This document shows positions 4,345 through 56,278 of a DNA stretch of 64,000 nucleotides, one piece after another (positions within the stretch are counted from its first letter, which is position 1; each line of letters starts with the position of its first letter). The notes beneath the pieces are model-generated. The model did not search any database, was not told the DNA's origin, and saw only the letters and a list, made by a program, of their open reading frames with translations. This stretch comes from a virus: IMG/VR virus record IMGVR_UViG_3300041955_000531; one strand, given 5' to 3'. Position numbers and translations under genes: made by a program.

Positions 4345-5645
4345 TGGCTACCTCAATCATACCTCTCGTAGACGGCACAACTGGAAGTGCTTCCGCGGTC
4401 CAGGCGAACTTTGATGTCCTGATCAACCAAGGTCAAGCTGCCATAAATGAGTGTGTTGTCCTGCGTGAAAACACCCTTCTCCTGTTTAATAACGCACTGT
4501 CGGAACTGAATGGGAAGAAGGTCCGTGCCAACCGCCTGGCTCAGATAGGAGTACCTGTCAAGTTCCTGACCACAGATGACAAGGATATCAACCAGCCGAT
4601 CACCACAGCCACCCTCCGGTGCGATGCGGGCAATGTCACCCTTCGCGAACGACAGGCTCCAGGAGAGGCGATCGTCTCCCAGGTAAGGTTCTCTGCCAGC
4701 CAGGGCACGATCCAGGCTCTACAGGTCCCCCAGACGGGTTCTAGTGGCAATCTAGGAGCCCTTTACAGGGTCGCCACCCAGAATGGGGCCGTACCGGTAG
4801 GCACCTTCGATATCCAGCTTGTCAACCCTGTTACGACCGGGCTAATCATCTTTGATATGATGGATATGCCCGCAGGTCCAACGGTCCAGCCTTATATTTC
4901 ATTAAATGGAATAAACTTCGCTCCAGCCGTCACCTTGACTCAGAATGGGTACCGTCTGGCTGCCTGGTTCGCGCCGGCTGAGACACAGTATATTCGCCTG
5001 GCTATCACTCCAGCCCTCCCTGACGTCCTGGGTGGAGATGTCTTTACCTTCGGACTAACCGACTTCCATGCCTTCTCGGTACAATACCATCTGCAGTCAG
5101 ATGTTTATACTAATCAGATACAGCTGACACCCCAGTCTGCCTTTTTGGAGTTTGACACGGATACGGTCTCGGGTGTTACTTACTTCCTGTCCTTGGGAGG
5201 TAATCCTGCCCTCGAGGTATTCCCTGGCGCCATAGTCCCAGTCCCTGGCGCCACAGTGGTAACCTCCACATCAGTGCCTTTAGACTCGGGAACGGGCCAG
5301 CTACAACTACCTAGCCCAGCTGTGACTTACCAGCTGCCGTCCGATGCCTATCCTTCTTCTTTGGTAATAACCGACGTAACAAATCCAGCAGCTCCTGTAG
5401 AAATGAGGATTGCTCCTGGGTTGTCTGCTGCAGCTACACCCCCATCGAATCAATACTTTACATTGGATGGCTCGGGGAATATGTATCTGGTGACGTACCA
5501 TTCAGGGCCAGATGCTTCGCGAGTATTCGATGTGTCTTATACGACTGGGCCAGCACAACTCACAGCTCAGCTTCATGTGCAGCTTACAACTTCAGATCTT
5601 AACACTACGCCGGTCTACTCTGGCGCCCAGCTTGTAGAGGTATAA
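4344..5645 (+). CDS. Putative baseplate/tail structural protein
   Basis: 433 aa; ISLNGINF segment resembles discoidin-like folds; coupled operon. Confidence 0.55.
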   Translation: MATSIIPLVDGTTGSASAVQANFDVLINQGQAAINECVVLRENTLLLFNNALSELNGKKVRANRLAQIGVPVKFLTTDDKDINQPITTATLRCDAGNVTLRERQAPGEAIVSQVRFSASQGTIQALQVPQTGSSGNLGALYRVATQNGAVPVGTFDIQLVNPVTTGLIIFDMMDMPAGPTVQPYISLNGINFAPAVTLTQNGYRLAAWFAPAETQYIRLAITPALPDVLGGDVFTFGLTDFHAFSVQYHLQSDVYTNQIQLTPQSAFLEFDTDTVSGVTYFLSLGGNPALEVFPGAIVPVPGATVVTSTSVPLDSGTGQLQLPSPAVTYQLPSDAYPSSLVITDVTNPAAPVEMRIAPGLSAAATPPSNQYFTLDGSGNMYLVTYHSGPDASRVFDVSYTTGPAQLTAQLHVQLTTSDLNTTPVYSGAQLVEV

Positions 5646-15149: not shown

Positions 15150-15500
15150 TGGTGGAGGCGCGGGGAGTTGAACCCCGGTCCAAAAAGCATCACAACTGCG
15201 GTACTACATGCGTAGTCCTATCACTTCTATCGTCGGCCACAGTAAGCAAGGACAACTCTCTGTAGCCCCGTTCCCTATTGTTTTAAGCACTCATAGTTAG
15301 AGCAGCACTATGAATCACCGAGCCTGCTAGTTTACGCCCTAGCCCAGTCAGCAGACATCGCCAGGTAGGACGTGGCTGCATTAAGCAGCCAACGGCAGTT
15401 CAAAAGCTTCTGCAGTTAAAGTTTTCCATTCTCTTACGGTGGTATGGGCACCGGCATGCACCTAGGTCGATCAGGCTTCTGTCGAAACCAAGTCGCCCCC
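15150..15500 (-). ncRNA. ssrA: tmRNA
   Basis: 5' GGGGGCGACTTGGTTTCGAC; 3' T arm plus CGCCTCCACCA with G3:U; tag ORF at 15381-15413 reads AEAFELPLAA*. Confidence 0.95.
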
Positions 15501-18669: not shown

Positions 18670-18748
18670 TGGTCGGAGAGGAGAGATTTGAACTCTCGAT
18701 CTCGTGCGCCCAAGGCACGCGCCTTAAACCGGACTAGGCCACTCTCCG
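18670..18748 (-). tRNA. tRNA-Pro(TGG)
   Basis: Cloverleaf; loop CT TGG GC; encoded CCA. Confidence 0.9.
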
Positions 18749-18749
18749 T

Positions 18750-18823
18750 TGGTACCCGAGCAGAGACTTGAACTCTGTTCTCCAGCTTGAAGGGCTGGTG
18801 TCTTACCCATATACGACTTGGGC
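18750..18823 (-). tRNA. tRNA-Glu(TTC), C33 variant
   Basis: CCAGC-CCTTCAA-GCTGG; CCA. Confidence 0.85.
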
Positions 18824-18825
18824 AC

Positions 18826-18984
18826 TTAAGACTTTGTTGTACCTGGCAGGATGTTCTTGATCCATGCTAGGATACTATCAACGCGCGCGATGAAGTTAGG
18901 ATAGTGCTGCTGGAACTTCATGCCGCCAAAGAAAACAAGAAGGGTAAGAATCCCTTCCACTACAACCTTGAGAAGTGTGAACAT
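18826..18984 (-). CDS. Small membrane protein
   Basis: MFTLLKVVVEGILTLLVFF after RBS GGAG. Confidence 0.6.
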   Translation of the reverse strand: MFTLLKVVVEGILTLLVFFGGMKFQQHYPNFIARVDSILAWIKNILPGTTKS

Positions 18985-19070
18985 AACGTCTCCTAAACTC
19001 TGGCTACGCTTCGGCTCGAGGCGCCCACGTAGCCATGCGATGTGTCCTCGCTTAGACACATCTAAACTGT

Positions 19071-19145
19071 TGGTAGTCTCGGCGAGATTCGAACTCGCGT
19101 GACCAGCTTGAGAAGCTGGCATCCTCGCCACTAGATGACGTGACC
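19071..19145 (-). tRNA. tRNA-Glu(CTC)
   Basis: CCAGC-TTCTCAA-GCTGG; CCA. Confidence 0.9.
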
Positions 19146-19154
19146 ACCGAAAAC

Positions 19155-19190
19155 TGGCGGGACCAACGGGATTTGAACCCGTGATCCTGC
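19155..19190 (-). pseudogene. Orphan 3' half of a tRNA-Asp-like gene
   Basis: GCAGG-ATC-ACGGG TTCAAAT CCCGT-TGGTCCC-GCCA; no 5' half adjacent. Confidence 0.75.
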
Positions 19191-19197
19191 TAAATCT

Positions 19198-19272
19198 TGG
19201 CGGAACCAGCGGGAATCGAACCCGCATCCCACCCGTGACAGGGGTGCGTCATAGCCATTAGACCATGGCTCC
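19198..19272 (-). tRNA. tRNA-Asp(GTC)
   Basis: CACCC-CTGTCAC-GGGTG; CCA. Confidence 0.92.
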
Positions 19273-19593
19273 GTGATGTTTCATTCGGTGATGGTTAGCA
19301 CACAGGATGTCACACTTAGCTATTTCTTCCTGGATGCGTTTCAACGACCATCCCTTACGATTAAAGGAGCCGATCTCGAAAGACTTCTGCGCAGGATTTC
19401 TGTGATGGAAATCCAAGGCACTTGGGTGTTCTTTGAAACCACATACCTTGCAGCCTCTCTCGAGTTTATAGTCTTCGATCCACTTCTTGTTCCGAGCTAT
19501 CCGTAGCTTATCACACTTGCGGACGGCTTTCAAATGCTTCTTGCGATTCGCTGGATTACTATACCACTTCTTCCAAGCTTCTTGATTACTCAT
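19258..19593 (-). CDS. HNH endonuclease
   Basis: CKVCG...LDFHH...CDILCANHHR; 3' end overlaps tRNA-Asp. Confidence 0.9.
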   Translation of the reverse strand: MSNQEAWKKWYSNPANRKKHLKAVRKCDKLRIARNKKWIEDYKLERGCKVCGFKEHPSALDFHHRNPAQKSFEIGSFNRKGWSLKRIQEEIAKCDILCANHHRMKHHGAMV

Positions 19594-19612
19594 TGCTGCT
19601 CCTCGGATAGAG

Positions 19613-20005
19613 GAGTCAGCCTATCAACATCCCGCCATCGGCTAACCGCCGCGGTTTACCATCACGATTGCTTTGTCAAGGCAACCGATAAATACGAGGA
19701 TCTAACTGCAACACTCAAAGGCGACGCCAGCTCTCCCCCGTAATATGAGGGGGCACCAGCTTATGCAGTGGTGTCTGCAGCTCCTGCAGATCCAAGATGG
19801 GCGCGAGCAAGCCCGAAGCCTGACACTGTTCGGCTTTGGCCTCGGTAAGAGCGAGCAAAACAGTAAAAGGAACGCTCACTTACCCGCAAAGAACAACTGA
19901 CCTGAGTGATAAGTCTCACTCTATCCCGCGAGCGCTTTCCCAAACATCGGGCCGATGTAACGTCGCTTGCCGCTTTCCAAAGCGGCCAGGATAGAAGGAC
20001 TACTC
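19613..20005 (-). ncRNA. Candidate ~390-nt structured RNA
   Basis: Ends pair (GAGT..CTATC / GATAG..ACTC); several hairpins; no convincing ORF. Confidence 0.5.
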
Positions 20006-20171
20006 ACTTACTACAGGTCAAACTCTTCAATCTTTCAATCTCGTTTGCTGCTTCTTCCAGAAGATCGGCGATACGATCAGGCTTGCCTTCCTGTACGCTC
20101 TTGCGTGTAGTTATCTGCCTTCGTATCTCGGCGCGCTTGCGCAGCCTGCTAATCAGATCTTCCGTACTCAT
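20004..20171 (-). CDS. Small hypothetical protein (55 aa)
   Basis: MSTEDLISRLRKRAEIRRQITTRKSVQEGKPDRIADLLEEAANEIE...; below the ORF-track cutoff. Confidence 0.65.
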   Translation of the reverse strand: MSTEDLISRLRKRAEIRRQITTRKSVQEGKPDRIADLLEEAANEIERLKSLTCSK

Positions 20172-20176
20172 AAACT

Positions 20177-20250
20177 TGGTCCCTTGGGATGGGCTCGAAC
20201 CATCATCTCCTGATCTTCAGTCAGGGGTCCTACCATTGAACGACCGCGGG
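20177..20250 (-). tRNA. tRNA-Phe(GAA), atypical
   Basis: CCTGA-CTGAAGA-TCAGG; two acceptor-stem mismatches; G37. Confidence 0.7.
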
Positions 20251-20252
20251 TT

Positions 20253-20341
20253 TGGAGGAAGGCCAGAGAATCGAACTCTGTCTCGCCTTTCGACGAGTCT
20301 CGGTTTTCGGGACCGTTGCCGACCATTCAGCGCTGCCCTCC
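20253..20341 (-). tRNA. tRNA-Ser(CGA), C33 variant
   Basis: CGGT-CCCGAAA-ACCG; long variable arm; CCA. Confidence 0.8.
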
Positions 20342-20347
20342 TAAACT

Positions 20348-20437
20348 TGGCGGAGGGTGTAGGATTTGAACCTACGCTGGCTTTCACCAGGCCTCAGGTT
20401 AGCAACCTGGCGCCTTTCCAAACTCAGCCAACCCTCC
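20348..20437 (-). tRNA. tRNA-Ser(GCT)
   Basis: Loop TT GCT AA; long variable arm; CCA. Confidence 0.92.
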
Positions 20438-20506
20438 GAATACACGGGTAGATCGTGATGAGTTTCTACTACTCGAGTTGGCTGTTGCGTTCATCATACT
20501 AATCCT

Positions 20507-20584
20507 TGGCAGGCCAGGATGGATTTGAACCACCGTCATCGGTTTTGGAGACCGAGGTCCTGGGCCAGACTAAACGACCGGCCT
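20507..20584 (-). tRNA. tRNA-Trp(CCA)
   Basis: TCGGT-CTCCAAA-ACCGA; CCA. Confidence 0.92.
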
Positions 20585-20588
20585 GCGA

Positions 20589-20801
20589 TTAAACTATACC
20601 ACCGAATGGCGGCTGGCCAGCATCCACCAGCTTCTGTTCGAGAACCCTGATAGCGCATACGAGAGTCTTGATCAGATTCTCGTTATCGGTATCCTTGAAG
20701 GGTATGTCCAACAGTACTTCGCCACCAACTACACCGACAAAAGCTCTCTTCTGCTTTGTGTCGGGGTCTACTATTTCAGTTACGTATGATTCGATGATCA
20801 T
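20589..20801 (-). CDS. Hypothetical protein
   Basis: 70-aa ORF with RBS AAGGA. Confidence 0.6.
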   Translation of the reverse strand: MIIESYVTEIVDPDTKQKRAFVGVVGGEVLLDIPFKDTDNENLIKTLVCAIRVLEQKLVDAGQPPFGGIV

Positions 20802-20811
20802 TGTCAGTCCT

Positions 20812-20853
20812 TGGTGGAGCAGATGGGAATCGAACCCTCTCTCAAAACCTTAT
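20812..20853 (-). pseudogene. 3' half of a split tRNA-Ala
   Basis: GGG TTCGATT CCC AT-CTGCTCC-ACCA; acceptor strand complements GGGGCAG at 21493-21499. Confidence 0.85.
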
Positions 20854-20886
20854 AGCTCCTATACTATTCAAATATAGAGGAGCTTT

Positions 20887-20962
20887 TGGTGGAGCATGCG
20901 AGATTTGAACTCGCCGCCTCCGCATTGCAAGTGCGGCGCTCTCCCAAATGAGCTAATGCCCC
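20887..20962 (-). tRNA. tRNA-Ala(TGC), intact replacement copy
   Basis: G3:U70; CCGCA-CTTGCAA-TGCGG; CCA. Confidence 0.95.
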
Positions 20963-20963
20963 A

Positions 20964-21455
20964 ATGAAAACTATAACACGAACCTGCTTAAATCCAAAAT
21001 GCAAGAAACAGTTTGAAGCTGAACTCCGAGAAGTACATCGCGGTAATGGTAAATATTGCTGTTTACAATGCTGCCTTAATCACATAAGACCAGTAGGTCG
21101 CACTTTACATACACTAACTTGTTCCTACTGCTTCAAAGAGTTTAAAGATGATCGACCCCTTGTGCCAGGTTTGCCTGATATTGTAGTGCCAGATATACTG
21201 CCTCGTCGATACTGTAGTCGGCAATGTAAGGATCTGAATCATAGAAATGATTGTCATGATGCTCGAACACTGGCGTTTCGCAACTTTCCACATAAATGCA
21301 ATCGCTGTAACTGGGATACAGAACCAGCGGTTCTGGAAGTTCATCACAAAGACCGCAACAGAGAAAACAATGAGCTATCTAATCTTGAACTACTTTGCCC
21401 AACTGATCATTGTTTAGATCACTTTCTTGCAAAAGATGGCAAGTGGCGCAAGTAA
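20964..21455 (+). CDS. HNH endonuclease with N-terminal zinc-binding repeats
   Basis: CxxC/YCSxxC repeats; CNRC...LEVHHKDRNRENNELSNLELLCPTDH. Confidence 0.9.
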   Translation: MKTITRTCLNPKCKKQFEAELREVHRGNGKYCCLQCCLNHIRPVGRTLHTLTCSYCFKEFKDDRPLVPGLPDIVVPDILPRRYCSRQCKDLNHRNDCHDARTLAFRNFPHKCNRCNWDTEPAVLEVHHKDRNRENNELSNLELLCPTDHCLDHFLAKDGKWRK

Positions 21456-21499
21456 CTTATGCTTGCAAAGCATCTGCGCTCCCGTTGCGCCACTGCCCC
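21456..21499 (-). pseudogene. 5' half of a split tRNA-Ala(TGC)
   Basis: GGGGCAG TG GCGC AACGGGA GCGC A GATGC TTTGCAA GCATA AG, then breaks off. Confidence 0.85.
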
Positions 21500-21510
21500 A
21501 CGGAAAATCT

Positions 21511-21621
21511 AATCCTAGATTGACAGCCGGACCAGCGGCGATAAGGTATGTCCGGATTGTGCGCGGCTTTTCTGGTTAGTATCCTGCGTCTAACCATCCT
21601 ATTGACCGCCAATCTAGGGTT
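21511..21621 (-). ncRNA. Candidate ~110-nt structured RNA
   Basis: 15-bp closing stem with G:U pairs on the - strand enclosing internal hairpins. Confidence 0.5.
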
Positions 21622-21652
21622 GATGACCAACTCAACTTGAGTTTGTCAAACT

Positions 21653-21730
21653 TGGTCGGGGAGGGAGGATTCGAACCTCCGTTCTCCTGAATCCGAATCA
21701 GGCGCCTTGGACCAGCTAGACCACTCCCCG
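21653..21730 (-). tRNA. tRNA-Pro(CGG)
   Basis: CCTGA-TTCGGAT-TCAGG; CCA. Confidence 0.92.
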
Positions 21731-21780
21731 ATACTAAACCTTTACGGTCGTTCGGGTCGTGGCTCTAGTCCGCGCGTCAT

Positions 21781-22134
21781 TTAGAAACTCATTCCTAGTA
21801 TCTTGCGATTACGGATCACCATAGCGGTTTCTCCGATCGCTACTGCTCCCCAAAAGATGTATGCGGCCGGCATGCTGTAGTAAGCAAAAGCCCCGCCTGC
21901 AAAAGTAACAAAGGCGCCTTCAAGGAAACAAGTCAAAGCTTGTCCTATCTTGCCGAAGAGCCAGCGATTCCAAGGACTCATTTCTTTATCGCCCTTGGAA
22001 AGGCCAATACCAGTATACCAGCAATCACCGAGCATGGCAACTATAGTATACACGTACACCAGGAACAGCCCTAGAGAATCCCAGAAGCCTGGCTGATTAG
22101 GCCACAAACGCGGATCATCGGGTAGTTGAAACAT
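21781..22134 (-). CDS. Membrane protein (DUF5658-like)
   Basis: TM segments with D.wyT..gL.KG.kE.sP pattern. Confidence 0.6.
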   Translation of the reverse strand: MFQLPDDPRLWPNQPGFWDSLGLFLVYVYTIVAMLGDCWYTGIGLSKGDKEMSPWNRWLFGKIGQALTCFLEGAFVTFAGGAFAYYSMPAAYIFWGAVAIGETAMVIRNRKILGMSF

Positions 22135-22155
22135 TGTTTCTCCTTCTATAAACTC

Positions 22156-22245
22156 TGGTGGAGACGATAGGATTTGAACCTATTCTAGTCCCATTGGGAC
22201 CTGGGGTTACGGCCCAGTGCAGATCCCCGTCTCTGCTGCGCCTCC
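22156..22245 (-). tRNA. tRNA-Tyr(GTA), C33 variant
   Basis: CTGGG-CCGTAAC-CCCAG; long variable arm; CCA. Confidence 0.85.
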
Positions 22246-22313
22246 ATGGAAGCGCACCTCTCCGTGCGCTCATTAAGCGCTACGATAACCGACTCCGCTG
22301 CTCTGTCCACCTT

Positions 22314-22631
22314 TCATGGTACATTCCTATAGTTGTTCACTGTGCAGTAGACGTGATAAGCTGCCTGGCACAAATACCCAACTCCAAATCCGTATCCTGC
22401 AGGTGTCCAGTAATGCGCTGCAATACCTGCTACAAGAACCTCGAGTGCTACGGCAATGCTGCTACGAACCCACATCCTCTTCACTGAAGGATCATCGGTG
22501 CCGTAGATCCAGATCATGATTCGATCTGCTTCAGTGTAACCTTTCCTCAGAAAGCGAGCTGTGCTGACTCCATCCGCTGTTGCAGCTGGGATCAGAATAC
22601 CCACTGCGATCTTGAGAAGCGTTGGTATCAT
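22314..22631 (-). CDS. Membrane protein (DUF5658-like), probable paralog of 21781
   Basis: D..ST..FL.KG..E pattern plus TM segments. Confidence 0.6.
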   Translation of the reverse strand: MIPTLLKIAVGILIPAATADGVSTARFLRKGYTEADRIMIWIYGTDDPSVKRMWVRSSIAVALEVLVAGIAAHYWTPAGYGFGVGYLCQAAYHVYCTVNNYRNVP

Positions 22632-22858
22632 TGCGCTGTCTTTCTCCTGTATTGACGAACCTTTTCGAAAACCCAGTTGACCGTTGAGTACGCGTGCTCA
22701 TCTTCTAACTTGTGATCCTCGATTAGGTGCACAGTCATTCGGTTGCACATGCCGCGAATAACACAGTGTTTGCAGAGTTCACAATCACGAAGCATCGGGA
22801 TGTCCGGATCGAACTGGGGTTTCTCTTTGAACCAACACAACAAAAATCCGAATGTCAT
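22628..22858 (-). CDS. Hypothetical zinc-finger-like protein
   Basis: CELC...H...H pattern. Confidence 0.5.
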   Translation of the reverse strand: MTFGFLLCWFKEKPQFDPDIPMLRDCELCKHCVIRGMCNRMTVHLIEDHKLEDEHAYSTVNWVFEKVRQYRRKTAQ

Positions 22859-22877
22859 CGTGCTCTCGCTATAAACT

Positions 22878-22962
22878 TGGTGTACCTGAGAGGATTCGAA
22901 CCTCCACGCCTTGCGGCACGCGGCTCTCAACCGCGGCTGGCTACCAGTTTCAGCACAGGTAC
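22878..22962 (-). tRNA. tRNA-Leu(GAG)
   Basis: CGCGG-TTGAGAG-CCGCG; long variable arm; CCA. Confidence 0.92.
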
Positions 22963-22963
22963 T

Positions 22964-23052
22964 TGGTGCTGAAGGAGAGATTCGAACTCTCACGGCTTTC
23001 TAGGGCCACAGGGGCTTGAGCCCTGCGCGGCTGCCAGTTACGCCACTCCAGC
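22964..23052 (-). tRNA. tRNA-Leu(CAA)
   Basis: CAGGG-CTCAAGC-CCCTG; long variable arm; CCA. Confidence 0.92.
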
Positions 23053-23065
23053 ACATCTATAAACT

Positions 23066-23144
23066 TGGTGCGCTGGGTGGGATTCGAACCCACAAAATCT
23101 CCTCGGTCTGAACGAGGCGGCTTTGCCATTTTGTCCACCAGCGC
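23066..23144 (-). tRNA. tRNA-Leu(CAG), short variable arm
   Basis: CCTCG-TTCAGAC-CGAGG; CCA. Confidence 0.85.
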
Positions 23145-23234
23145 CTTGAACTACAAGGTCCGGGGACGGCAGTCCGCGGGCCTGCTAACTAAGCAGGCCT
23201 AGCAATCGAATACATCCGCCCATTGTATCGTTCA

Positions 23235-23639
23235 TCATGATTCCATTGTATCACACTGCCAGGCGTTCAGGCCATGGAACAGTGACTTACCTTTCTTCCT
23301 CGAACAAAAGACTGCAACCGCGGTTAAGAGGGCTTCTTCTGTCTGATAGTACCCGGGGTTGGTATCGCGAAACTCTTCCCACGGTAGACGCGCGTGTGAG
23401 ATTTGATGACGGACTTTCTCCAGCTCGTTGCTGTCAACGACTTTGAGGATGATGGTTGTGTGCTCTTCATCAGGGTCCAGTTTAAGTCTCAACTTCAGTT
23501 TCGATACTACATGACATGCCTGGGCTATACAACGGCCGCAAGACATCGGAATAATCTCCCTCAGGAACATCGTAGGTGATATTACGAATGAAGGGAGAAT
23601 AACGTAAATCCTTTTTTCAACTACGGTGCCTGGGGCCAA
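23235..23639 (-). CDS. Peptidyl-tRNA hydrolase (Pth2-like)
   Basis: MSCGRCIAQACH, TIILKV and RDTNP...TAVA match the Pth2 pattern. Confidence 0.75.
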   Translation of the reverse strand: MAPGTVVEKRIYVILPSFVISPTMFLREIIPMSCGRCIAQACHVVSKLKLRLKLDPDEEHTTIILKVVDSNELEKVRHQISHARLPWEEFRDTNPGYYQTEEALLTAVAVFCSRKKGKSLFHGLNAWQCDTMES

Positions 23640-23997
23640 GGACTCTACCTCTCAAAGCCATTCCAATCTTGGCTTTGTGTTCCTCAGACATAGGACCGCG
23701 TTTTGTTCCTGTCTGAGAACCACGGATCTTCGCTGCAATCGCTGGACTACCAGCTGTACGAATAGCATGACAGTTAGCGCAAACTAAATCGCACTTATCA
23801 GCCTCTCGTTTCAGTTCTTCAAGAGATCGATGTAATCCCGAGCTAATAGAAAAGAGTTTAGTACTCGGGTCACGATGATCAAAATGAAAGCAACAGTCAG
23901 GAAAGATATGATTGCAATCAAGACACTTGCCACCTTTGTAGAGAACAAGCTGATGTTTCTTCTCTTGGCGTTTACTCTTTAATCCTAACCATGTCAT
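23617..23997 (-). CDS. HNH endonuclease with NUMOD3-like tail
   Basis: CLDC...FDHRDP...CDLVCANCH; SEEHKAKIG. Confidence 0.9.
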   Translation of the reverse strand: MTWLGLKSKRQEKKHQLVLYKGGKCLDCNHIFPDCCFHFDHRDPSTKLFSISSGLHRSLEELKREADKCDLVCANCHAIRTAGSPAIAAKIRGSQTGTKRGPMSEEHKAKIGMALRGRVLGPRHRS

Positions 23998-24028
23998 TGC
24001 GCTTCTCTACTTTGGGCGTCTCTTTCAT
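23972..24028 (-). pseudogene. Probable orphan N-terminal stub of the pth-like gene
   Basis: MKETPKVEKR versus the Pth N-terminus MAPGTVVEKRIYV. Confidence 0.5.
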
Positions 24029-24034
24029 AAGCTT

Positions 24035-24110
24035 TGGCTGGAGCGGAAGGAATCGAACCTTCAAGTGGATGAGTAACAGTCATCTGCTGTACCGGTTGAG
24101 CCACACTCCA
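24035..24110 (-). tRNA. tRNA-Asn(GTT)
   Basis: GATGA-CTGTTAC-TCATC; CCA. Confidence 0.9.
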
Positions 24111-24600
24111 GTAGAATCTTTTAGTTGTAGGGAGCTAGCTCGCCAGGACGGCAAGCCGAAGAGGAGGGTTACTTACTCTTTGGTTGCGGTAATGGCTTCT
24201 GCGGCTTATACATATTGACTGTCGCCGCTGCTAGTCGTGTGGCCCCATGGTTGAACCATGAGGCCTTCCGAACTTTCTTCTTGCCGGCCATTACCGTTTC
24301 CGGTTAGGCTGACTTGACGCCCGAGTTTGCCACCTTCGGCTGAGTCGGCTTGATAGCCTTTGCCTTGTGTGTGGTCGGGGACGCGAAGATCGGGTCGCCT
24401 ATATACGGGGTCTTGCTAAGTTGTGCTGGGGGTGTCTTAGACCCGTTACTATTCTTCATGTTGTTCTCCATTATTCTGTTTTTGCTTCTGTCGCCAGCCA
24501 CAATAGGGACAGACGAACTCGTCTTTCGGTTCCTTCTTTGAGGCTTGCTTATTGCATACAGGACACTTCATAGTACACATAGCATACCTCTTGGATATCA

Positions 24601-24730
24601 ATAGCGCACGGCTTACATGACAACCGCGCTGGCCTTCCGGTGGGCCAACTTCCAAATCGTCCAGCGTCCCGAACGATTCAGCACCTGCCCTCGGTGTACA
24701 GAGGGGCTACCTTGTCACTTTTCGCGCTAC
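24601..24730 (-). ncRNA. Candidate ~130-nt multibranch RNA
   Basis: Nested closing stems plus three hairpins, with G:U pairs favouring the - strand. Confidence 0.5.
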
Positions 24731-24737
24731 CAATCTT

Positions 24738-24849
24738 TGGAGCTCCAGGTGGGTTTTTCACCATACCGATTTTCACCGGCAACAGGAGTTTAGCCTGCCA
24801 CGACCCCCGGATTAGAAGTCCGGTGCTCTAATAACTGAGCTACTGAAGC
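24738..24849 (-). tRNA. tRNA-Arg(TCT)-like RNA with T loop replaced by a structured insert
   Basis: Acceptor, D and anticodon arms and CCA intact; about 45 nt with two hairpins inside GTGG/CCAC. Confidence 0.75.
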
Positions 24850-24868
24850 TAGAAGCCTTCTCAATCTC

Positions 24869-24944
24869 TGGAGCGGCTAATCGGATTCGAACCGATACAT
24901 CCTGCTTGGAAGGCAGGCATGCTGGCCGTTAACATCACAGCCGC
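24869..24944 (-). tRNA. tRNA-Gly(TCC)
   Basis: CCTGC-CTTCCAA-GCAGG; U73 CCA. Confidence 0.92.
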
Positions 24945-25085
24945 TGGTCCCGATTATCCCTTAAGAGGACCCACCGTGTACTTTGGTGATTGGTCGGGTC
25001 GAAAACCTTTCTTGAAGAACGGCGCGAAGTAAACAGCGCCCAGTAAAATAGTGCAAGTTATTGCATAAGCTAGCATAAGATCTCG

Positions 25086-25159
25086 TGGAGCGAAATGCCG
25101 GATTCGAACCGGCGCTCGAACCTTGGCAAGGTTCTGTACTACCACTATACGAATCCCGC
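25086..25159 (-). tRNA. tRNA-Gly(GCC)
   Basis: GAACC-TTGCCAA-GGTTC; U73 CCA. Confidence 0.92.
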
Positions 25160-25169
25160 TCATTCCCTA

Positions 25170-25182
25170 CTGATTAGTATAG
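25170..25182 (-). promoter_or_regulatory. Conserved phage promoter motif TATACTAATCAG
   Basis: Exact motif 10 nt upstream of tRNA-Gly(GCC). Confidence 0.7.
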
Positions 25183-25575
25183 TAGTTGCCTACGTATAAC
25201 TAACCAATAGAACCTACAACACTTATCTGATTTCACCAATCTACAGCGTATCTGAAAGCTTCCATCTCTTTCTATGGTGCGCAGCCGGAAAACAGCGCGC
25301 CACCATTTAGAGCAGGTAGGATAGATTGGATCGAACACAACCCATTATACCATACTTAGATCAGCTTGGATGGCCCAAATGCGAATCTCTTGCCACCATT
25401 GGTTCCTTCGCTGATGGCGGGGCGGCTCATGAACTCCCATTGCTTTGTTGTATGGTTCCACGTTCGATTCACTCTGACGCCAAGCATCATCTTGGTGCCG
25501 CCAGCCAAGGTGACACCCTGACCCACTGATGGGCATTGCTTCGGTGCTGGTCTTCCTTGGTTCATTGTGACCTCG

Positions 25576-25660
25576 TGGAGCAGGGTGGAGGACTCGAACC
25601 TCCGTGGATTTTACTCGCCGCATTACAGGTGCGGTGCTGTCGCCACTGAGCCAACCCTGC
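25576..25660 (-). tRNA. tRNA-Thr(TGT), C33 variant with long variable arm
   Basis: CCGCA-CCTGTAA-TGCGG; 14-nt variable region; CCA. Confidence 0.75.
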
Positions 25661-25671
25661 TAGTAATCTTG

Positions 25672-25745
25672 TGGCTGCCTTCGAAGGACTCGAACCTTCA
25701 TATCCAGCTCCAGAGGCTGGCGTCCTACCATTAAACGAGTAGGCA
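25672..25745 (-). tRNA. tRNA-Gln(CTG)
   Basis: CCAGC-CTCTGGA-GCTGG; CCA. Confidence 0.9.
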
Positions 25746-25752
25746 ACGGTAT

Positions 25753-25899
25753 TTAGAAGTTCGGATTGTTGGCTATCTGGTAGGTGATATAAGCATAATA
25801 GCTTGCTACCACCGCTAGGGTAATCAGAGCAAGTGCAAATGCCCGCCATCCGATCTCTGCTATGTGCTTGACTTCTTTGACTTCTCTTTCTACGCTCAT
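25753..25899 (-). CDS. Small membrane protein
   Basis: MSVEREVKEV... with one TM helix; RBS GAGG. Confidence 0.55.
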   Translation of the reverse strand: MSVEREVKEVKHIAEIGWRAFALALITLAVVASYYAYITYQIANNPNF

Positions 25900-25916
25900 G
25901 TATGCCTCTTTAAACC

Positions 25917-25993
25917 TGGCGGGCCTGGAGAGATTCGAACTCTCTAGTTGGCAGGTTAGAACTCTGCTGCTCGTCCAATCGAGCTTCAAGCCC
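25917..25993 (-). tRNA. tRNA-Arg(TCT)
   Basis: GCAGA-GTTCTAA-CCTGC (G32, 31-39 mismatch); A20; CCA. Confidence 0.8.
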
Positions 25994-26001
25994 GCGAAAC
26001 T

Positions 26002-26081
26002 TGGCGCGCTATGAGAGATTCGAACTCCCGACCCCTCGGTCCGTAGCCGAGTGCTCTTGGTTTCCGCTGAGCTAATAGCGC
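26002..26081 (-). tRNA. tRNA-Arg(ACG)
   Basis: CTCGG-CTACGGA-CCGAG; CCA. Confidence 0.92.
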
Positions 26082-26082
26082 T

Positions 26083-26157
26083 TGGTAGGTTCGGCGGGCA
26101 TCGAACCCGCAACTCCCTGCTTAAAGGGCAGGTACTCTACCATTGAGTTACGAACCT
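26083..26157 (-). tRNA. tRNA-Lys(TTT), C33 variant
   Basis: CCTGC-CCTTTAA-GCAGG; CCA. Confidence 0.85.
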
Positions 26158-26160
26158 ACG

Positions 26161-26235
26161 TGGTTGGTAGACCTGGACTCGAACCAGGATCTTGGGGTTC
26201 AAGGCCCCACGTGCTACCATTTGCACCACCTACCA
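26161..26235 (-). tRNA. tRNA-Gln(TTG), C33 variant
   Basis: TGGGG-CCTTGAA-CCCCA; CCA. Confidence 0.85.
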
Positions 26236-26238
26236 GTG

Positions 26239-27135
26239 TTACTGTGGCAGGTTGGTTCGTTGCTGGTTTGTATCAGCTGTCCTACCTGGTTCATCTTTCA
26301 TGCGATCAACCAAAGTGGACCTCGTTTCTGGCTTGCCTTTCGACTTCTTACAAATAGCTTCGTACGCGGCCAGAGCGCGATCACGGATGTCTTCATCCGG
26401 ATGCATGTATCCTACTATCTCGAGCGCTTCTCGAGTGTGGTGCCGGAAGTGAATAGGCAGGTTGCCCCACTCCGACGGATACATTTCGAATCTGGTCTCC
26501 AAGTTCATGAACTCTCTGTCCTTCATGTAGTGCGTATCTTCTTTCACGTTCTTCATTACAACCCAACGCAACCAGTGTGTAATTCTTCGGACTTCATCTT
26601 CTGTGGCGATGTCCGATCCGCGCATGGCGCAGAATAAAGCCGACTGCATCTTGCCTGTCAGCTGTAGAACCCAGTCCTGTATTACCCATTCGCCGCGGGC
26701 AATAGGACTGTCATCTTTCAGGCGCTGGATTATATCCACACGATCTTCTGGCAGAATACTCTCGTGCTCTGTCAGATCATGATAGGCCTTCAATGCTTTT
26801 GCCTGGGTCCACTCGTCAGGGTGGAAGAAGGCTATGATAGCCAATGACTGTTTCAGGTGATCGTAGAAGTGTGTCTTCAGACGATCCCATTGCCAAGCAT
26901 CTTGATCCATAAGCGCTTTGATATCAATGAACTCTGTGTCTCTCATGAAATGAGATCTCGGATTGTTCAGCTTGATGCACTGCTTACGGATCCAACGTAC
27001 GACTCTCTTCACTTCTGGTGAATCATCTGAGTCGGCGCCACGGAAAGAGGCAACAAGCTCGGACTGCATACGTCCGGACATGCCGACCTCTTTGATCCAG
27101 TCCTTTAGATTGCACTCGCCTGGCTCGATGATCAT
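26239..27135 (-). CDS. Hypothetical protein with tandem duplicated ~140-aa domain
   Basis: GRMQSELVASFRGAD..HF.DHL..L.II.F.HPD repeated as GKMQSALFCAMRGSD..HF.HH...L.IV.Y.HPD. Confidence 0.8.
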   Translation of the reverse strand: MIIEPGECNLKDWIKEVGMSGRMQSELVASFRGADSDDSPEVKRVVRWIRKQCIKLNNPRSHFMRDTEFIDIKALMDQDAWQWDRLKTHFYDHLKQSLAIIAFFHPDEWTQAKALKAYHDLTEHESILPEDRVDIIQRLKDDSPIARGEWVIQDWVLQLTGKMQSALFCAMRGSDIATEDEVRRITHWLRWVVMKNVKEDTHYMKDREFMNLETRFEMYPSEWGNLPIHFRHHTREALEIVGYMHPDEDIRDRALAAYEAICKKSKGKPETRSTLVDRMKDEPGRTADTNQQRTNLPQ

Positions 27136-27473
27136 ACAACTCTCTCAAAGTATTCTATCGCGAACTTCTGTCTTTCTTCTTCTAGCTCGCGTAGTCGTTC
27201 TTTCTCACGCACTAGAGCCTGGGCTTCTGCTATCTTTACAGGATCATGAAACTCCAGCCAGGCTCGCATGTAACAGTCACAGTAGGGAGTACCATTGTGA
27301 TACTCATCTCCTCTCACTGGGAGCATACTCCCTTCGTGGAAGCGATTATCACCTATATGTGCCGTCGCGTGTATCTCAAATGCTCGTTCCCAGATGGGCG
27401 CTGTTTCCTTACGCGCCTGCTCTGTTGGCAGAGGATATCCCTCACCGAGCACTTCTTTTGGGGTCTCTAACAT
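27132..27473 (-). CDS. Hypothetical protein
   Basis: 113-aa ORF coupled to the next gene. Confidence 0.6.
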   Translation of the reverse strand: MLETPKEVLGEGYPLPTEQARKETAPIWERAFEIHATAHIGDNRFHEGSMLPVRGDEYHNGTPYCDCYMRAWLEFHDPVKIAEAQALVREKERLRELEEERQKFAIEYFERVV

Positions 27474-27489
27474 CTGCCCTCTTTAAATC

Positions 27490-27567
27490 TGGTACCGCGT
27501 CAAGGATTTGAACCTCGGACTTCCTCTTTGTAAGAGAGGCACTCTGACCGGACTGAGTTAACACGGC
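27490..27567 (-). tRNA. tRNA-Val(TAC)
   Basis: CCTCT-CTTACAA-AGAGG; CCA. Confidence 0.92.
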
Positions 27568-27639
27568 ACATAAATCCAAGGCCGACCCCAGATACGGCCG
27601 CCAATGTTGCACTGGGACAGCTGTCGGCACTAATCTCAT

Positions 27640-27710
27640 TGCAGGGTGCTGGAATCGAACCAGCGTCTCCGGTCTTCATGGCCGGTATTCTTCCACTGCA
27701 CCAACCCTAC
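27640..27710 (-). pseudogene. Degenerate tRNA, identity undetermined
   Basis: Good acceptor and T arms; 9-nt anticodon loop CCATGAAGA; no CCA. Confidence 0.6.
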
Positions 27711-27722
27711 GGCCTGCAGAAC

Positions 27723-27920
27723 TTATTTCACCTTGATTTCGGTGACGGGATAGTTGCTGTATGGAGTCTTCTGTACCGCGGCGAAGACGTCGCCAGTAAG
27801 GCGATCGATTACGTGCTTCACTTCGTCACGCGTCAGATCACGTCTCTTGTTGTTCACTTCGATTGTGATCCTGGTACGGGTGTTTCCATCATCTGCGACT
27901 ACTGTTGCGACTCGTTTCAT
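27723..27920 (-). CDS. Hypothetical protein
   Basis: RBS AAGGAG; 65 aa. Confidence 0.6.
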   Translation of the reverse strand: MKRVATVVADDGNTRTRITIEVNNKRRDLTRDEVKHVIDRLTGDVFAAVQKTPYSNYPVTEIKVK

Positions 27921-27936
27921 GGTCGTCTCCTTAAAC

Positions 27937-28009
27937 TGATTGGGGAATCCGGTCTCGGTCCGGAATCTCCCGGTACTATCCGGGGCTTTCGATCTTAAGC
28001 TATTCCCCA
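27937..28009 (-). ncRNA. tRNA-like RNA with non-canonical loops
   Basis: All four stems pair; 6-nt anticodon loop ATAGTA; T loop ACCGAGA; ends ATCA. Confidence 0.6.
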
Positions 28010-28018
28010 GGCTTACAA

Positions 28019-28450
28019 CTATTTCTCACGTGTGTAATGTTGACATTCTTTACACAAGTGATGTAATCCATTGAACTCACTTCTGTTCTTATTGAACTGT
28101 GAAATAGGAAGCATCTTCTTATGCCTACTACACCAGTTCATTCCTTCTGGCCTTTTGATAAAAGGTATGCCTTTTGGTGAATGAGGTCGATCAGGTTTAT
28201 TACAAGCAACATGTGAAAATGCTATGTTATTCAAATCCCAAAAGAGATCTGAACTAATATGTAACCACGGCTTTTTGTGCTCAATAGAAAAGTCTTCGAT
28301 CTTTTCTATTCGTGATCCACACTTGTAACACAGATCCTCATTCAATCTTTGTGCCATTCGAAAGAGCAAACTCTTTCTAAGTTTGGCCATTGCTGTACCA
28401 AACGGCATTCCCAACTGTGATGCCTTCACAGTGTTTGAAGTATTTGGCAT
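28019..28450 (-). CDS. HNH endonuclease
   Basis: CYKCG...SIEHKKPW...NNIAFSHVACN plus C-terminal zinc ribbon. Confidence 0.85.
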   Translation of the reverse strand: MPNTSNTVKASQLGMPFGTAMAKLRKSLLFRMAQRLNEDLCYKCGSRIEKIEDFSIEHKKPWLHISSDLFWDLNNIAFSHVACNKPDRPHSPKGIPFIKRPEGMNWCSRHKKMLPISQFNKNRSEFNGLHHLCKECQHYTREK

Positions 28451-28471
28451 GGATACCCTCCTGCCTTTTAC

Positions 28472-28557
28472 TTGCGGAGGCTGGATTTGAACCAGCGGTG
28501 CCCTTTCGGTTCCAGTTTATGAGACTGGCGACATCGGCCTGACTAGTCGACCCCGCA
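28472..28557 (-). tRNA. tRNA with CAT anticodon (Met-like), long variable arm, no CCA
   Basis: CCAGT-CTCATAA-ACTGG; fMet-like acceptor TGCGGGG/CTCCGCA. Confidence 0.75.
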
Positions 28558-28572
28558 ACAGAAAATGAAAAT

Positions 28573-52412: not shown

Positions 52413-52700
52413 TTACTTATCGTAGTGACGCTTGGCAATCCCATTGCGATCCAGAGTCTGGATGGCTGATATAGCCAGGCCTGCCACCTTCAACATATCC
52501 GTACGGAATCGGATAGGATTGAAGAGACGAGTCGTGCGATCCATTTCCACTGCCCGGCCGGCGTAGATCATGAGATAAGATGCCCAGTCATTGGCTGTGT
52601 TCTTATCATCGAACTCAGTACCCCAAAGGTTCTCGGCATACTCTTTCTCTGCCTTGATCTCAGCCACGATACTTTCGAACTGCTTTTCATCAAATGGCAT
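52413..52700 (-). CDS. MazG-like all-alpha protein
   Basis: E..Y....WG.EFDD.N...DW..Y...MLKVAGLAISAI. Confidence 0.55.
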   Translation of the reverse strand: MPFDEKQFESIVAEIKAEKEYAENLWGTEFDDKNTANDWASYLMIYAGRAVEMDRTTRLFNPIRFRTDMLKVAGLAISAIQTLDRNGIAKRHYDK

Positions 52701-53953
52701 TATACTTTCCTCTCAGCCTCTTCCGTTTCTTCTTCTTCCTGGGCTGCCAACATGTCGTTGACCATGGGCGCCAGGTCTGGGTACTCCAGAGCAATACAAG
52801 GGAACTTATAAGGGCAGTATCGGCACTGCCAGTCCCCAATAATAGGTCCGACCTTAGAGTCCTTCCACTTACGGCTCTTGCCGTTCTTCCAGGACTTCCA
52901 TTCGGCGAACTTAACCTTGCCAATGAAGCCCTTTTCAGCGAAGCTTTCGATAGCTATGTCGGTATAACGGTAGCGGTAGTCTGCTGGGGGTAGGTATGAC
53001 GTCGGTAGGCGTCTCATCTCCTCCCCAACCCTCTCCCAGAATGCCTTTTCCTGCTGTTTCCAGGCGATTACAGCCTCTTCCGGCGCTTCCGCGGGCAAGG
53101 AGGCTGGACGGACTGTCCCCTGCTCCTGGAGCCTCCGGATCGCTTCAGCCTGTGATCGGTTAAAGTAACCCTGGATCTGTTCGAAGCGTTCATAAATCGA
53201 CTCCACCGTGAAAATGCGCCAAACATCTCCGTTGACTTGAGGATAGTGGAGGCCATCATAATCCTCGTAGATTTCGATATCGAACTCCGCTGTGAGGCAG
53301 GTGTCTCGTGTCTCGTAGCAAATCTTTCCATACACGGGCGAATCATCTTTGATCATCCCTAGGTTGACGTCGGTGACACGGACTCGGTTGCGCGGATTAG
53401 TTGGTTTATCCGCTTGCGCAGTTGCAATGATTTGCTTGAGCAGGGCACCATTACGTATCTCGTTGATATAGATGAGTGTCTGGAGAACATGCTCGAGCTT
53501 TGGCTTCCCCTTCTGATAAGGGCCACCAATGATTTCCTTCTGGGCCATATAGCCGTAGATTGATTTGTTTTCACATATCACCGGTTGTCCTGACTGAGGG
53601 TCTATGACAATAAGGTCCAACTCAAAGGCCAGATCAATGTTCGGGACGTAGTGCCTGACCCCACTGGCAATATGCAGACCGGCCTCCATAGCCTGAAGCG
53701 TGGTATCTTCCTCAACGGCTTTACCAGTTCGAACTCGACGCGCACCGACGGGGTCCATCTGACTTGTAGTCTTCTCCCCTGTGAGCCTGTAATATACCTT
53801 TCGTCCACAGCCCCCGGCAAAACCCGCAACTGTGGGTTCGAGGAGGACAGCCGAACTCTCTGAAGGCCAGAGTCTGGCAGACTTGCTTGTCCAGTCATCA
53901 CGCTTCTCCATTCCAACTAGTGCTTTGTCGAGGTGCTCAAACAACTTAAACAT
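52700..53953 (-). CDS. Cas4-like PD-(D/E)XK exonuclease with Fe-S cysteines
   Basis: PSES..CGRKVYY, ELD, ENKS, QTLIY and CRYCPYKFPC. Confidence 0.8.
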   Translation of the reverse strand: MFKLFEHLDKALVGMEKRDDWTSKSARLWPSESSAVLLEPTVAGFAGGCGRKVYYRLTGEKTTSQMDPVGARRVRTGKAVEEDTTLQAMEAGLHIASGVRHYVPNIDLAFELDLIVIDPQSGQPVICENKSIYGYMAQKEIIGGPYQKGKPKLEHVLQTLIYINEIRNGALLKQIIATAQADKPTNPRNRVRVTDVNLGMIKDDSPVYGKICYETRDTCLTAEFDIEIYEDYDGLHYPQVNGDVWRIFTVESIYERFEQIQGYFNRSQAEAIRRLQEQGTVRPASLPAEAPEEAVIAWKQQEKAFWERVGEEMRRLPTSYLPPADYRYRYTDIAIESFAEKGFIGKVKFAEWKSWKNGKSRKWKDSKVGPIIGDWQCRYCPYKFPCIALEYPDLAPMVNDMLAAQEEEETEEAERKV

Positions 53954-54107: not shown

Positions 54108-54211
54108 GTCTCCCGGGGAGGGATTCGAACCCTCCCCTTCGGTATTCAGGACCGACGTGCTCCGTCGACGGCCTACTATTTTATCGAACTCCAATACACC
54201 ACCCAAGAGAC
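54108..54211 (-). ncRNA. tRNA-like RNA with 35-nt D loop and 10-bp acceptor stem
   Basis: GTCTCTTGGG/CCCGGGAGAC; TCGGT-CCTGAAT-ACCGA; GAGGG-TTCGAAT-CCCTC. Confidence 0.7.
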
Positions 54212-54360: not shown

Positions 54361-55152
54361 TTATTCAACCTGTGGGACGGCGTCGCTCACAGCAACAACG
54401 TGAGACTTCTCGCCTTCAATATACTCCACAGGCTTTTGTAACTTGTCTTGGACAGCTTCCCAGACCATCTGGAAGACCTGTCCCGGAGTCTGTTCGGGAT
54501 AGACAGTGATCACGATCGTGCGATCCTGACCTACTAGTCTTTCCAGATACTCCTGCTGGATTCGAATCTGGTCTTGGGTGTGAGCCCAGGCCTTTCCAGC
54601 TTGTTTGTTGTTGTCGCCGCGCCGTTGACGCGCGCGGTCGAGAAAAGCATCCACATCTGATGCTACGAACAGCACGGTGATGTCTGGCAGTGGTCCGTAG
54701 AACTCCTGGAAAGCATCCAGTATAACACCTGGCGTCTTCTTTATGGGTGCGTAGGCCCACTCGGAGTCGGAGTAACGGTCGGACAATACCACCAAGCCTT
54801 TTTCAAGGGCCGGCTCAACCACCTTTGCCACATGCTGAATGTGATCGGCGAGGAAGAGACAGTCAGCCACTCCACGGGCCATGTTGTGTGTCGTGACCGT
54901 GTGGAACAAGATTTGGCGTATCGCAGAGCCCAAGTCAGTTGGGTCGACTGGGCTGCCAGGTTCCTTTGTAACCACAACCCCATAACCTTCCTCCCTCATG
55001 CGGGCAGCAAGCATCTCCAACTGCGTGGACTTACCCGTTCCATCTACTCCCTCGAAGGTTATGAGACGTCCCTTCCGTACTGGCTTATGAAGCTCTGGGT
55101 AAAGAGGATCTCCAAAAATCCGCTTATAGTTTTCTTTCGTCTCTTCCGACAT
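54361..55152 (-). CDS. tmk: Thymidylate kinase
   Basis: ITFEGVDGTGKSTQ, KEPG, LSDRY and PDIT motifs. Confidence 0.95.
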   Translation of the reverse strand: MSEETKENYKRIFGDPLYPELHKPVRKGRLITFEGVDGTGKSTQLEMLAARMREEGYGVVVTKEPGSPVDPTDLGSAIRQILFHTVTTHNMARGVADCLFLADHIQHVAKVVEPALEKGLVVLSDRYSDSEWAYAPIKKTPGVILDAFQEFYGPLPDITVLFVASDVDAFLDRARQRRGDNNKQAGKAWAHTQDQIRIQQEYLERLVGQDRTIVITVYPEQTPGQVFQMVWEAVQDKLQKPVEYIEGEKSHVVAVSDAVPQVE

Positions 55153-55672
55153 TTATGCTCCTCATCCATTCTGCCACTTTCATTACTTCTTCAGGGGTGG
55201 CATCGTTCTTGATTACATTAGCCCGCTGGCTAATAACTTGAATATTTCCTGGGACATAACCCTTATTAGGAACAATCCTATCAAGAGTTGGACTCGACGC
55301 AATAGAACCTGGCTTCCCAACCCCTTTCTTCAATACTATTCCAAGAATAGGACAGACCAAAGGTATTTTGGGGACGTCGGCGGGCTTAATAGAAAAAGGT
55401 AAGTGCTTCTTTATTGCCCTCTTCCTCGCCCCATTCCATAAAGCATACTCTGGGGTGTTGAAAAGACCATGCTTCAAACCACTATGCCCTTTCTTATAAC
55501 ACCCGCAACTTTTGCTTCTTCCGTTCTCAAGGTTGGAACCAATAACGTTTACTACCTTGCCACATTTACATTCACATTGCCAACGAGTAGCACCCCATCT
55601 GGCGTTCTCAACCTGCTTGATAACCTTGAGCCAAGTGAATGTCTTTCCAACAAGATCCAGTATCTTTCCCAT
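55124..55672 (-). CDS. HNH homing endonuclease
   Basis: DLVGKTF..L.V...W.C.C.CG...SCGC; SPTLDRIVPNKGYVPGNIQVISQRANVIK. Confidence 0.9.
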   Translation of the reverse strand: MGKILDLVGKTFTWLKVIKQVENARWGATRWQCECKCGKVVNVIGSNLENGRSKSCGCYKKGHSGLKHGLFNTPEYALWNGARKRAIKKHLPFSIKPADVPKIPLVCPILGIVLKKGVGKPGSIASSPTLDRIVPNKGYVPGNIQVISQRANVIKNDATPEEVMKVAEWMRSINVGRDERKL

Positions 55673-55710
55673 ACTTCACCTCAGTTGAGTAGATTTACAA
55701 GCCTACTCTT

Positions 55711-55723
55711 CTGGTTAGTATAG
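55711..55723 (-). promoter_or_regulatory. Conserved phage promoter motif TATACTAACCAG
   Basis: One-mismatch copy upstream of the HNH gene. Confidence 0.65.
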
Positions 55724-55762
55724 TAAATCAACGCCTTCGAACGTGATGAAATGTCCTTTCAT
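55715..55762 (-). pseudogene. Orphan N-terminal stub of the original tmk
   Basis: RBS GGAG then MKGHFITFEGVD-LLY*. Confidence 0.9.
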
Positions 55763-55801
55763 TCTAATCTCCTGACATGTTGTATGTAAATCAGTTTACC
55801 C

Positions 55802-56278
55802 TTACCGCCCTGTCGAGCCAAAGCCTTGTGCACCCCGAGAACTCTCACCCAAAGTGGTAGCTTCTTGAACAGTGCCGGGAAACACCGGAACCAATACCAG
55901 TTGAGCAATCTTGTCTCCATGGTTGTAAATGACCGTGGGATCCGAGACCGAGTAGTTTGGCCCAAGGCAACCTCCTGAGCCATGATACTCTACCGGCTCG
56001 TTCGAGTTGTACAACAGGACAGTGATTTCACCCCGGTAACCACTGTCAACCACGCCTCCGAAGACATCGATGCCAGCCTTCCCTTGTGAGCTACGAGCTT
56101 TAATGATTGCGCCCCAGCCTTCCGGAAACTCGCAAGCAATGCCTGTCTTGACCGCAACAGTTTGACCGGGCTGTACAGCCACCGTCTCGATGGCGAAAAG
56201 ATCAAACCCGAGATCCCCAGGATGCGCTCTCTGGGGCAGCTTCGCGTCCGCCTGTAGTTTCTTGACATACAGTTCCAT
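55802..56278 (-). CDS. dut: Trimeric dUTPase
   Basis: GFDL, ARSS, GVVDSGYRGEI, KIAQLV and RGAQGFGSTG motifs. Confidence 0.95.
   Translation of the reverse strand: MELYVKKLQADAKLPQRAHPGDLGFDLFAIETVAVQPGQTVAVKTGIACEFPEGWGAIIKARSSQGKAGIDVFGGVVDSGYRGEITVLLYNSNEPVEYHGSGGCLGPNYSVSDPTVIYNHGDKIAQLVLVPVFPGTVQEATTLGESSRGAQGFGSTGR

Follow-up and report, generated by a model that had tools for sequence, protein, structure and literature searches.

A PacI-like endonuclease gene between a displaced 5' fragment of tmk and a complete foreign tmk in a wetland phage: a probable gene-replacing homing cassette

Results

Organization of the tmk locus

The DNA analyzed here is a stretch of 64,000 nucleotides (hereafter the window), which looks like part of a large phage genome, because 25 tRNA-type genes and a tmRNA were predicted within it and the longest contig reaches 162,792 nt; the source is wetland metagenomes. 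The gene order on the minus strand is dut (55802-56278), a short fragment of tmk which we call the stub, a nuclease ORF (55124-55672), and tmk (54361-55152). The features of the locus are given below in comparison to L039 and L001, two relatives in which the site is empty.

55802..56278, minus strand: dut (dUTPase), the resident upstream gene; Pfam dUTPase E 9e-27; 476/477 nt identical to L039
55769..55773, minus strand: original ribosome binding site (RBS) of tmk (AGGAG), read from the sequence; the same in L039 before the intact tmk
55727..55762, minus strand: tmk stub, 12 codons (MKGHFITFEGVD) that remain of the resident allele after its displacement; matches the L039 tmk start at 36/36 nt
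55711..55722, minus strand: motif TATACTAAYCAG, resembling a phage promoter and placed 5 nt in from the left cassette end; contains the stop codon of the stub
55124..55672, minus strand: PacI-like beta-beta-alpha-Me endonuclease, 182 aa; PHROG endonuclease E 1e-30; no Pfam match
55158..55163, minus strand: putative RBS of the working tmk (GAGGAG), inside the nuclease ORF, 5 nt before the ATG at 55152
54361..55152, minus strand: working tmk, a complete foreign allele, 263 aa; Pfam Thymidylate_kin E 6e-30; 74% nt identity to L039, 83% to L001
55075..55152, minus strand: 26-residue N-terminal extension of the working Tmk; its first 29 nt overlap the nuclease ORF
55021..55074, minus strand: codons of the P-loop region of the working tmk; silent differences 15/17 against L001, 10/16 against L039
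53950..55726, minus strand: incoming tract (approximate) with leader, nuclease and tmk; left boundary exact, right boundary somewhere from 54361 to about 53400

The stub and the empty allele

The start codon of the stub lies at 55762 and its 12 codons run to 55727, after which the frame reads LLY and stops at 55715. This is in agreement with the first-pass annotation of the sequence, which had described an RBS (GGAG) and a short frame running into a promoter and a stop. The same annotation had placed the insertion at GVD|G, and the empty alleles confirmed this position to the base. A relative whose tmk begins MKGHFITFEGVDG directly after dut was looked for and was found in L039, where the first 36 nt of tmk are those of the stub and the gene then continues with GGG ACA GGC AAG, so that the break falls at GAT|GGG in the DNA, which is GVD|G in the protein, 12 codons into the resident tmk. 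Up to the last base of the stub (55727), the window and L039 were identical at 1170 of 1174 nt (99.7%). An empty allele in the pond metagenome run X4 leaves the window sequence at 55727 as a loose end and continues as L039 does, with the reservation that X4 and L039 may not be separate samples. In total, the site was found empty in L039, L001, L114, L042 and run X4.

The 36-nt identity to the start of an intact gene excludes chance as the origin of the stub, and the empty alleles of L039 and X4 demonstrate that the stub is the undecayed resident start of tmk and that the insertion of the cassette was a recent event. Six further contigs overlap the stub-nuclease region; they come from JGI, ENA and Logan assemblies and are all 100% identical to the window. 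The stub encodes ITFEGVD at 55747-55727 and the working gene does so at 55062-55042, with the codons as originally reported and with five of the seven third positions different; over K2-D12 the two copies agree at 25 of 33 nt, with no exact run longer than 5 nt.

Foreign origin of the working tmk

The working tmk was correctly described as starting inside the 3' end of the nuclease gene, its start being located 29 nt within the ORF at 55124-55672. The N-terminal extension is missing in the empty-site relatives, whose Tmk begins at the equivalent of residue 26, and a CGG codon occupies the position of their start methionine in the working gene. Only one base of dut differs between the window and L039 (476/477, 99.8%), while the body of tmk is only 74% identical at the nucleotide level. 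The trees of tmk and dut conflict: the working tmk groups with L001 at 100/99, and a grouping of the window with L039 was rejected (p-AU 4.8e-6). Based on the divergence of the tmk body and this rejection in comparison to the near-identical dut, we conclude that the whole tmk was replaced and that the nuclease gene and an entire foreign tmk were brought in together.

Along the locus, the identity to L039 drops from 99-100% to 56-84% at 55727 and from about 53950 onward it is again 86-100%; insertions that L039 itself carries there blur the right end of the incoming tract. A tRNA-like gene and a small ORF downstream of tmk probably also belong to this tract. The tRNA-like gene (54116-54203, minus strand) was missed by ARAGORN and scored 29.4 bits with the Rfam tRNA model; it has about 30 extra nt in the D arm, the loop CCTGAAT and a short variable arm, and it is conserved in L039, where the anticodon stem carries paired changes.

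The recoding of the P-loop noted in the first-pass annotation was found to be unexceptional against the displaced allele. Silent differences from L039 were 10/16 in the P-loop region and 89/164 in the rest of the gene (Fisher p = 0.6), and five differences at seven sites have a P of about 0.30 at the gene-wide rate of 0.54; the P-loop divergence is thus that of the gene background, and the 5/7 is ordinary. In comparison to L001, however, 15 of 17 silent sites differ in codons 2-19 and 64 of 187 elsewhere (p = 1.7e-5), which is slightly past saturation (saturation null p = 0.02). The 5' end of L001 is in turn unusually near that of L114 (4/17 versus 82/163 differences, p = 0.04), for which reason L001 may be a chimera. 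Either the working gene would carry a foreign 5' tract from an earlier event, or L001 would be the chimeric one.

No target motif could be read from the comparison of cassette-linked with empty tmk alleles. The RNA run X6 gave contigs over parts of tmk and the downstream region only, and was uninformative on expression or splicing.

The nuclease

The encoded protein is predicted to have a Cys-rich beta domain at its N-terminus and a catalytic domain in which D131, R132, Y139 and N152 are in register with D92, R93, Y100 and N113 of PacI, the sole match of a profile search; PacI R93 and Y100 have been named as catalytic (PMC13139853). Searches of the PDB and Pfam with the single sequence gave no match. 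The structural model had a pLDDT of 85 and PacI ranked top in both fold searches, the match being a weak one (Foldseek probability 0.92, E 0.045; Z 7.7, rmsd 3.2, 88 aligned residues). The label HNH, under which the gene had first been annotated, could not be kept: the catalytic His after the metal-binding Asp is absent (D131-R132), the position being Arg or Lys across the aligned close relatives, and there is no Pfam HNH match, which together rule out a canonical HNH nuclease in favor of the PacI-like D-R-Y-N residues. With PacI (PDB 3ldy, 3m7k) and the PacI-like phage HNH proteins (PMC12724721) the nuclease shares the catalytic pattern D-R-x6-Y-x12-N and may share the fold; it differs from PacI in being only 18% identical, in its extra N-terminal Cys-rich domain, and in that no equivalent of His42 was identified. 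By model and sequence, it is thus assigned as a PacI-type enzyme with an intact-looking predicted active site.

The promoter-like motif

The promoter noted earlier at the start of the cassette corresponds to a true recurrent motif, since TATACTAAYCAG occurs six times in the window (at 5106, 14142, 25181, 30907, 42433 and 55722) in comparison to 0.03 copies expected by chance. The copies lie mostly in front of genes, and the motif also heads the related cassette of L043. It is probably a phage-specific promoter lacking the sigma-70 -35 box. No sigma-70 promoter above chance was detected at the cassette start, and a hairpin in the leader was not significant (z = -1.3). At another locus, L214, a near-consensus sigma-70 promoter (1450-1480) directly precedes the nuclease gene and has an inverted repeat in its spacer, which may possibly be an operator.

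Relatives of the nuclease and their linkage to tmk

When relatives were picked by nuclease similarity alone, seven of ten (P0002, P0003, P0004, P0006, P0179, P0180 and L117) were located directly upstream of tmk and the remaining three preceded unrelated genes; two more tmk-adjacent nuclease loci, L043 and L069, were found via tmk. Nine tmk-adjacent loci other than the window were thus available (L036, L038, L040, L043, L069, L110, L117, L212 and L214), with widely different gene neighborhoods and with a tmk that mostly overlaps the nuclease stop. None of the more distant relatives (<200 bits) was adjacent to tmk, and cultured phages yielded only distant relatives of the nuclease. A quick-stage tree of the nuclease did not resolve the base and does not establish the tmk-linked group as monophyletic. 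A DNA pattern scan of viral contigs for the stub with the promoter returned no tmk or related nuclease among the matches listed and fetched.

Among the nine other loci a stub is present only in L040, which is unrelated to the window, so that eight of ten loci including the window are without one. The L040 stub ends after EGV plus one base, which is 2 nt before the break in the window and within the same motif; no empty-site relative of L040 was found, and its break point is therefore placed from the motif. Speculatively, a staggered cut could account for the 2-nt offset between the two junctions.

Several neighboring arrangements were also observed. In L212 (1501-2665) a member of the nuclease family precedes tmk, with a c-di-AMP receptor gene downstream, and the locus looks like a bacterial operon; its tmk start seems shifted by one base, perhaps by a long-read error. 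L041 (2890-3590) has a related nuclease gene after dut and no tmk downstream of it; this nuclease ends in RKESHGSTGQ, similar to RKEKGFGSTGK at the end of dut, which could possibly be a mirror case where the 3' end of dut was displaced. A further nuclease ORF, in L039 at about 3362-3907, has a D-R..GY motif and lies directly before the homologue of the window gene 52700-53953; the 5' part of this homologue is more diverged from the window than the middle, and the junction is also present in run X4. In further viral contigs (L121-L136), more distant relatives of the nuclease repeatedly precede a ferredoxin-like gene, which suggests another target-linked group.

Discussion

A cassette that replaces its target gene

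We interpret the locus as a free-standing homing endonuclease cassette which replaces its target gene, a reading to which we assign a probability of roughly 0.7. The nuclease gene has a promoter motif, an RBS and a stop of its own; it is located after codon 12 of the resident tmk and outside any intron or intein, and it is accompanied by a foreign flanking tract, as the tree test on tmk has shown. In a mixed infection, cleavage of the resident tmk by the PacI-like enzyme would take place at the GVD|GTGK codons or right beside them. For the left end to be joined to the cassette leader, the donor would either already have a stub to pair with or offer a 7-nt match (CGTTGAT) at the end of its dut, while the right end would pair only in the better conserved DNA past tmk, so that the whole gene would be exchanged. 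The incoming allele would escape cutting through its different spelling, and the P-loop codons of the working tmk are accordingly presumed to be nuclease-resistant. In later rounds, the stub would supply homology right up to the cut; its divergence from the working copy would steer repair through the nuclease gene and hinder clean excision, and the location of the tmk start inside the nuclease ORF would help to retain the cassette.

Some of the results count against this reading. The stub is not required, since eight of the ten loci linked to tmk are without it. The P-loop divergence from the displaced allele does not exceed background, the fold matches of the nuclease are each weak, and the break point could have been set by the 7-nt match at the junction without a local cut; the free-standing enzymes of T4 often cut far from their own gene (PMC2988022). 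In addition, no common immune spelling emerged when the cassette-linked tmk alleles were compared, and the working P-loop of L214 is near that of L039. A wider generalization, which we put forward only tentatively and consider somewhat doubtful, is that tmk-dedicated PacI-like homing endonucleases of phages and possibly bacteria might constitute a prokaryotic counterpart of the WHO elements of yeasts, with cutting at P-loop codons, the stub as a homology arm, an arms race at silent sites and repeated replacement of tmk.

Alternative explanations

The main rival explanation, which we consider unlikely, is that an ordinary free-standing endonuclease sits beside tmk, that the stub is an accidental scar without function, and that the enzyme cuts elsewhere or not at all. 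A stubless dut-nuclease-tmk module, such as that of L043, would then have recombined in, with the left join slipped onto CGTTGAT within tmk. The L043 cassette does start after a dut end with the same 7-mer, the empty L114 continues with GG like L039, and the frequency of stubless loci and the background level of P-loop divergence are both in line with such an accident. What it leaves unaccounted for is that the stub of the unrelated L040 breaks within 2 nt of the same motif, and that the nuclease group keeps to the 5' side of tmk in distant genomes, which suggests a conserved target close to the P-loop.

It is quite improbable that, as the first-pass annotation proposed, the cassette supplied only a short recoded 5' end to a resident tmk body. 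The excess of silent differences in codons 2-19 against L001 is what such an event would leave behind, and may record an earlier one in the donor lineage, except that L001 may itself be a chimera with a 5' end near that of L114; the body is only 74% identical to the very allele that matches the stub and flank, and with the AU rejection (p = 4.8e-6) this makes the entire working tmk foreign and refutes the proposal for the latest event.

Hardly any credence can be given to the stub as a true first exon that splicing or ribosomal bypass would connect with the body. The break does follow a U in a conserved motif, a position of the kind that group I introns favor. No Rfam intron family was detected even at E values up to 1, however, the ORF is flanked by only 54 nt upstream and 49 nt downstream, which leaves no room for a ribozyme core, and a 5' U together with a terminal G was not available at any in-frame position; bypass would have to span more than 650 nt although the working gene has its own RBS and ATG. 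The lack of a ribozyme core and of usable splice positions excludes splicing, and a group I intron with an encoded nuclease was rejected on these grounds. An assembly chimera of two co-occurring phage strains, which the presence of empty alleles in similar habitats might have suggested, can be dismissed in view of the six identical further contigs and a longest common run of 5 nt between the stub and the working copy.

Comparison with known systems

The gene-replacing cassette proposed here is closest in logic to the WHO elements of Torulaspora and Lachancea yeasts, in which a nuclease gene lies between a displaced fragment and a working gene (PMC7282813; bioRxiv 10.64898/2026.08.13.744650). 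Common to both are the lack of splicing, near-identity on one side of the site with low identity beyond it, and conflicting trees; the resistance through allelic spelling of the WHO elements is the same as we propose from the sequences. Here, however, the arrangement is the mirror image, with a 5' stub left behind and the working gene downstream, and the working gene is wholly foreign, with no resident part, rather than a chimera of resident and donor, an older chimerism at its 5' end being possible. The WHO elements also use a LAGLIDADG enzyme with a zinc finger against FBA1, in comparison to a PacI-like enzyme, a tmk target and phage or prokaryotic hosts, and tandem clusters of the WHO type were not seen in the ten loci here, several of which are on short contigs. 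By this analogy, the cassette would work like a mirror-image WHO element and is not a member of that group.

A mobile endonuclease which brings a foreign gene part, leaving a displaced native part identical to that of an empty relative, is likewise seen in the mORF hybrids of fungal mitochondria (atp6 of Allomyces macrogynus; atp6, atp9, cox2 and nad3 of Glomus; PMC3630166). Those hybrids involve replacement of the C-terminal part, organelles and other nuclease families, whereas here the 5' end was displaced and a whole gene was imported with its start signal. As in the intronless homing of the T4 Seg and Mob enzymes (PMC2988022), a phage nuclease gene lies next to a conserved target gene with co-conversion of the flank, and signals of the next gene are embedded in the nuclease ORF, a pattern that eight of the ten tmk-linked loci fit. 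The T4 genes are intergenic and their enzymes cut hundreds to thousands of bases away, while the gene here is located inside the target ORF with a stub left; the T4 account (PMC2988022) lists no tmk target and no PacI-like enzyme. No paper on a tmk-targeting homing endonuclease was found in the literature searched, the coverage of which was incomplete.

A 2026 account presented homing elements which replace part of a host gene as a rare third category, known from yeasts (bioRxiv 10.64898/2026.08.13.744650). The present locus offers a well-resolved phage case, in which the break can be placed to the base by means of a near-identical empty allele. What it chiefly adds is tmk as a target, the type of enzyme and the replacement of a whole gene. 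One nuclease would in this manner move a whole nucleotide-metabolism gene between lineages, and the locus points to an uncharacterised group of PacI-like enzymes. The empty and working alleles also make up a natural pair of presumably sensitive and resistant substrates for studying resistance by silent change and the role of the stub.

Other features of the window

The tmRNA is located at 15150-15500 and a large tRNA cluster at 18670-28558, with an atypical cloverleaf inside the cluster at 27940-28009. At 20812-21499, a tRNA-Ala is split into 5' and 3' halves on either side of an HNH gene (20964-21455, in opposite orientation) and a second tRNA-Ala, complete and different, at 20887-20962; this locus has the same break-and-replace design as the tmk locus.
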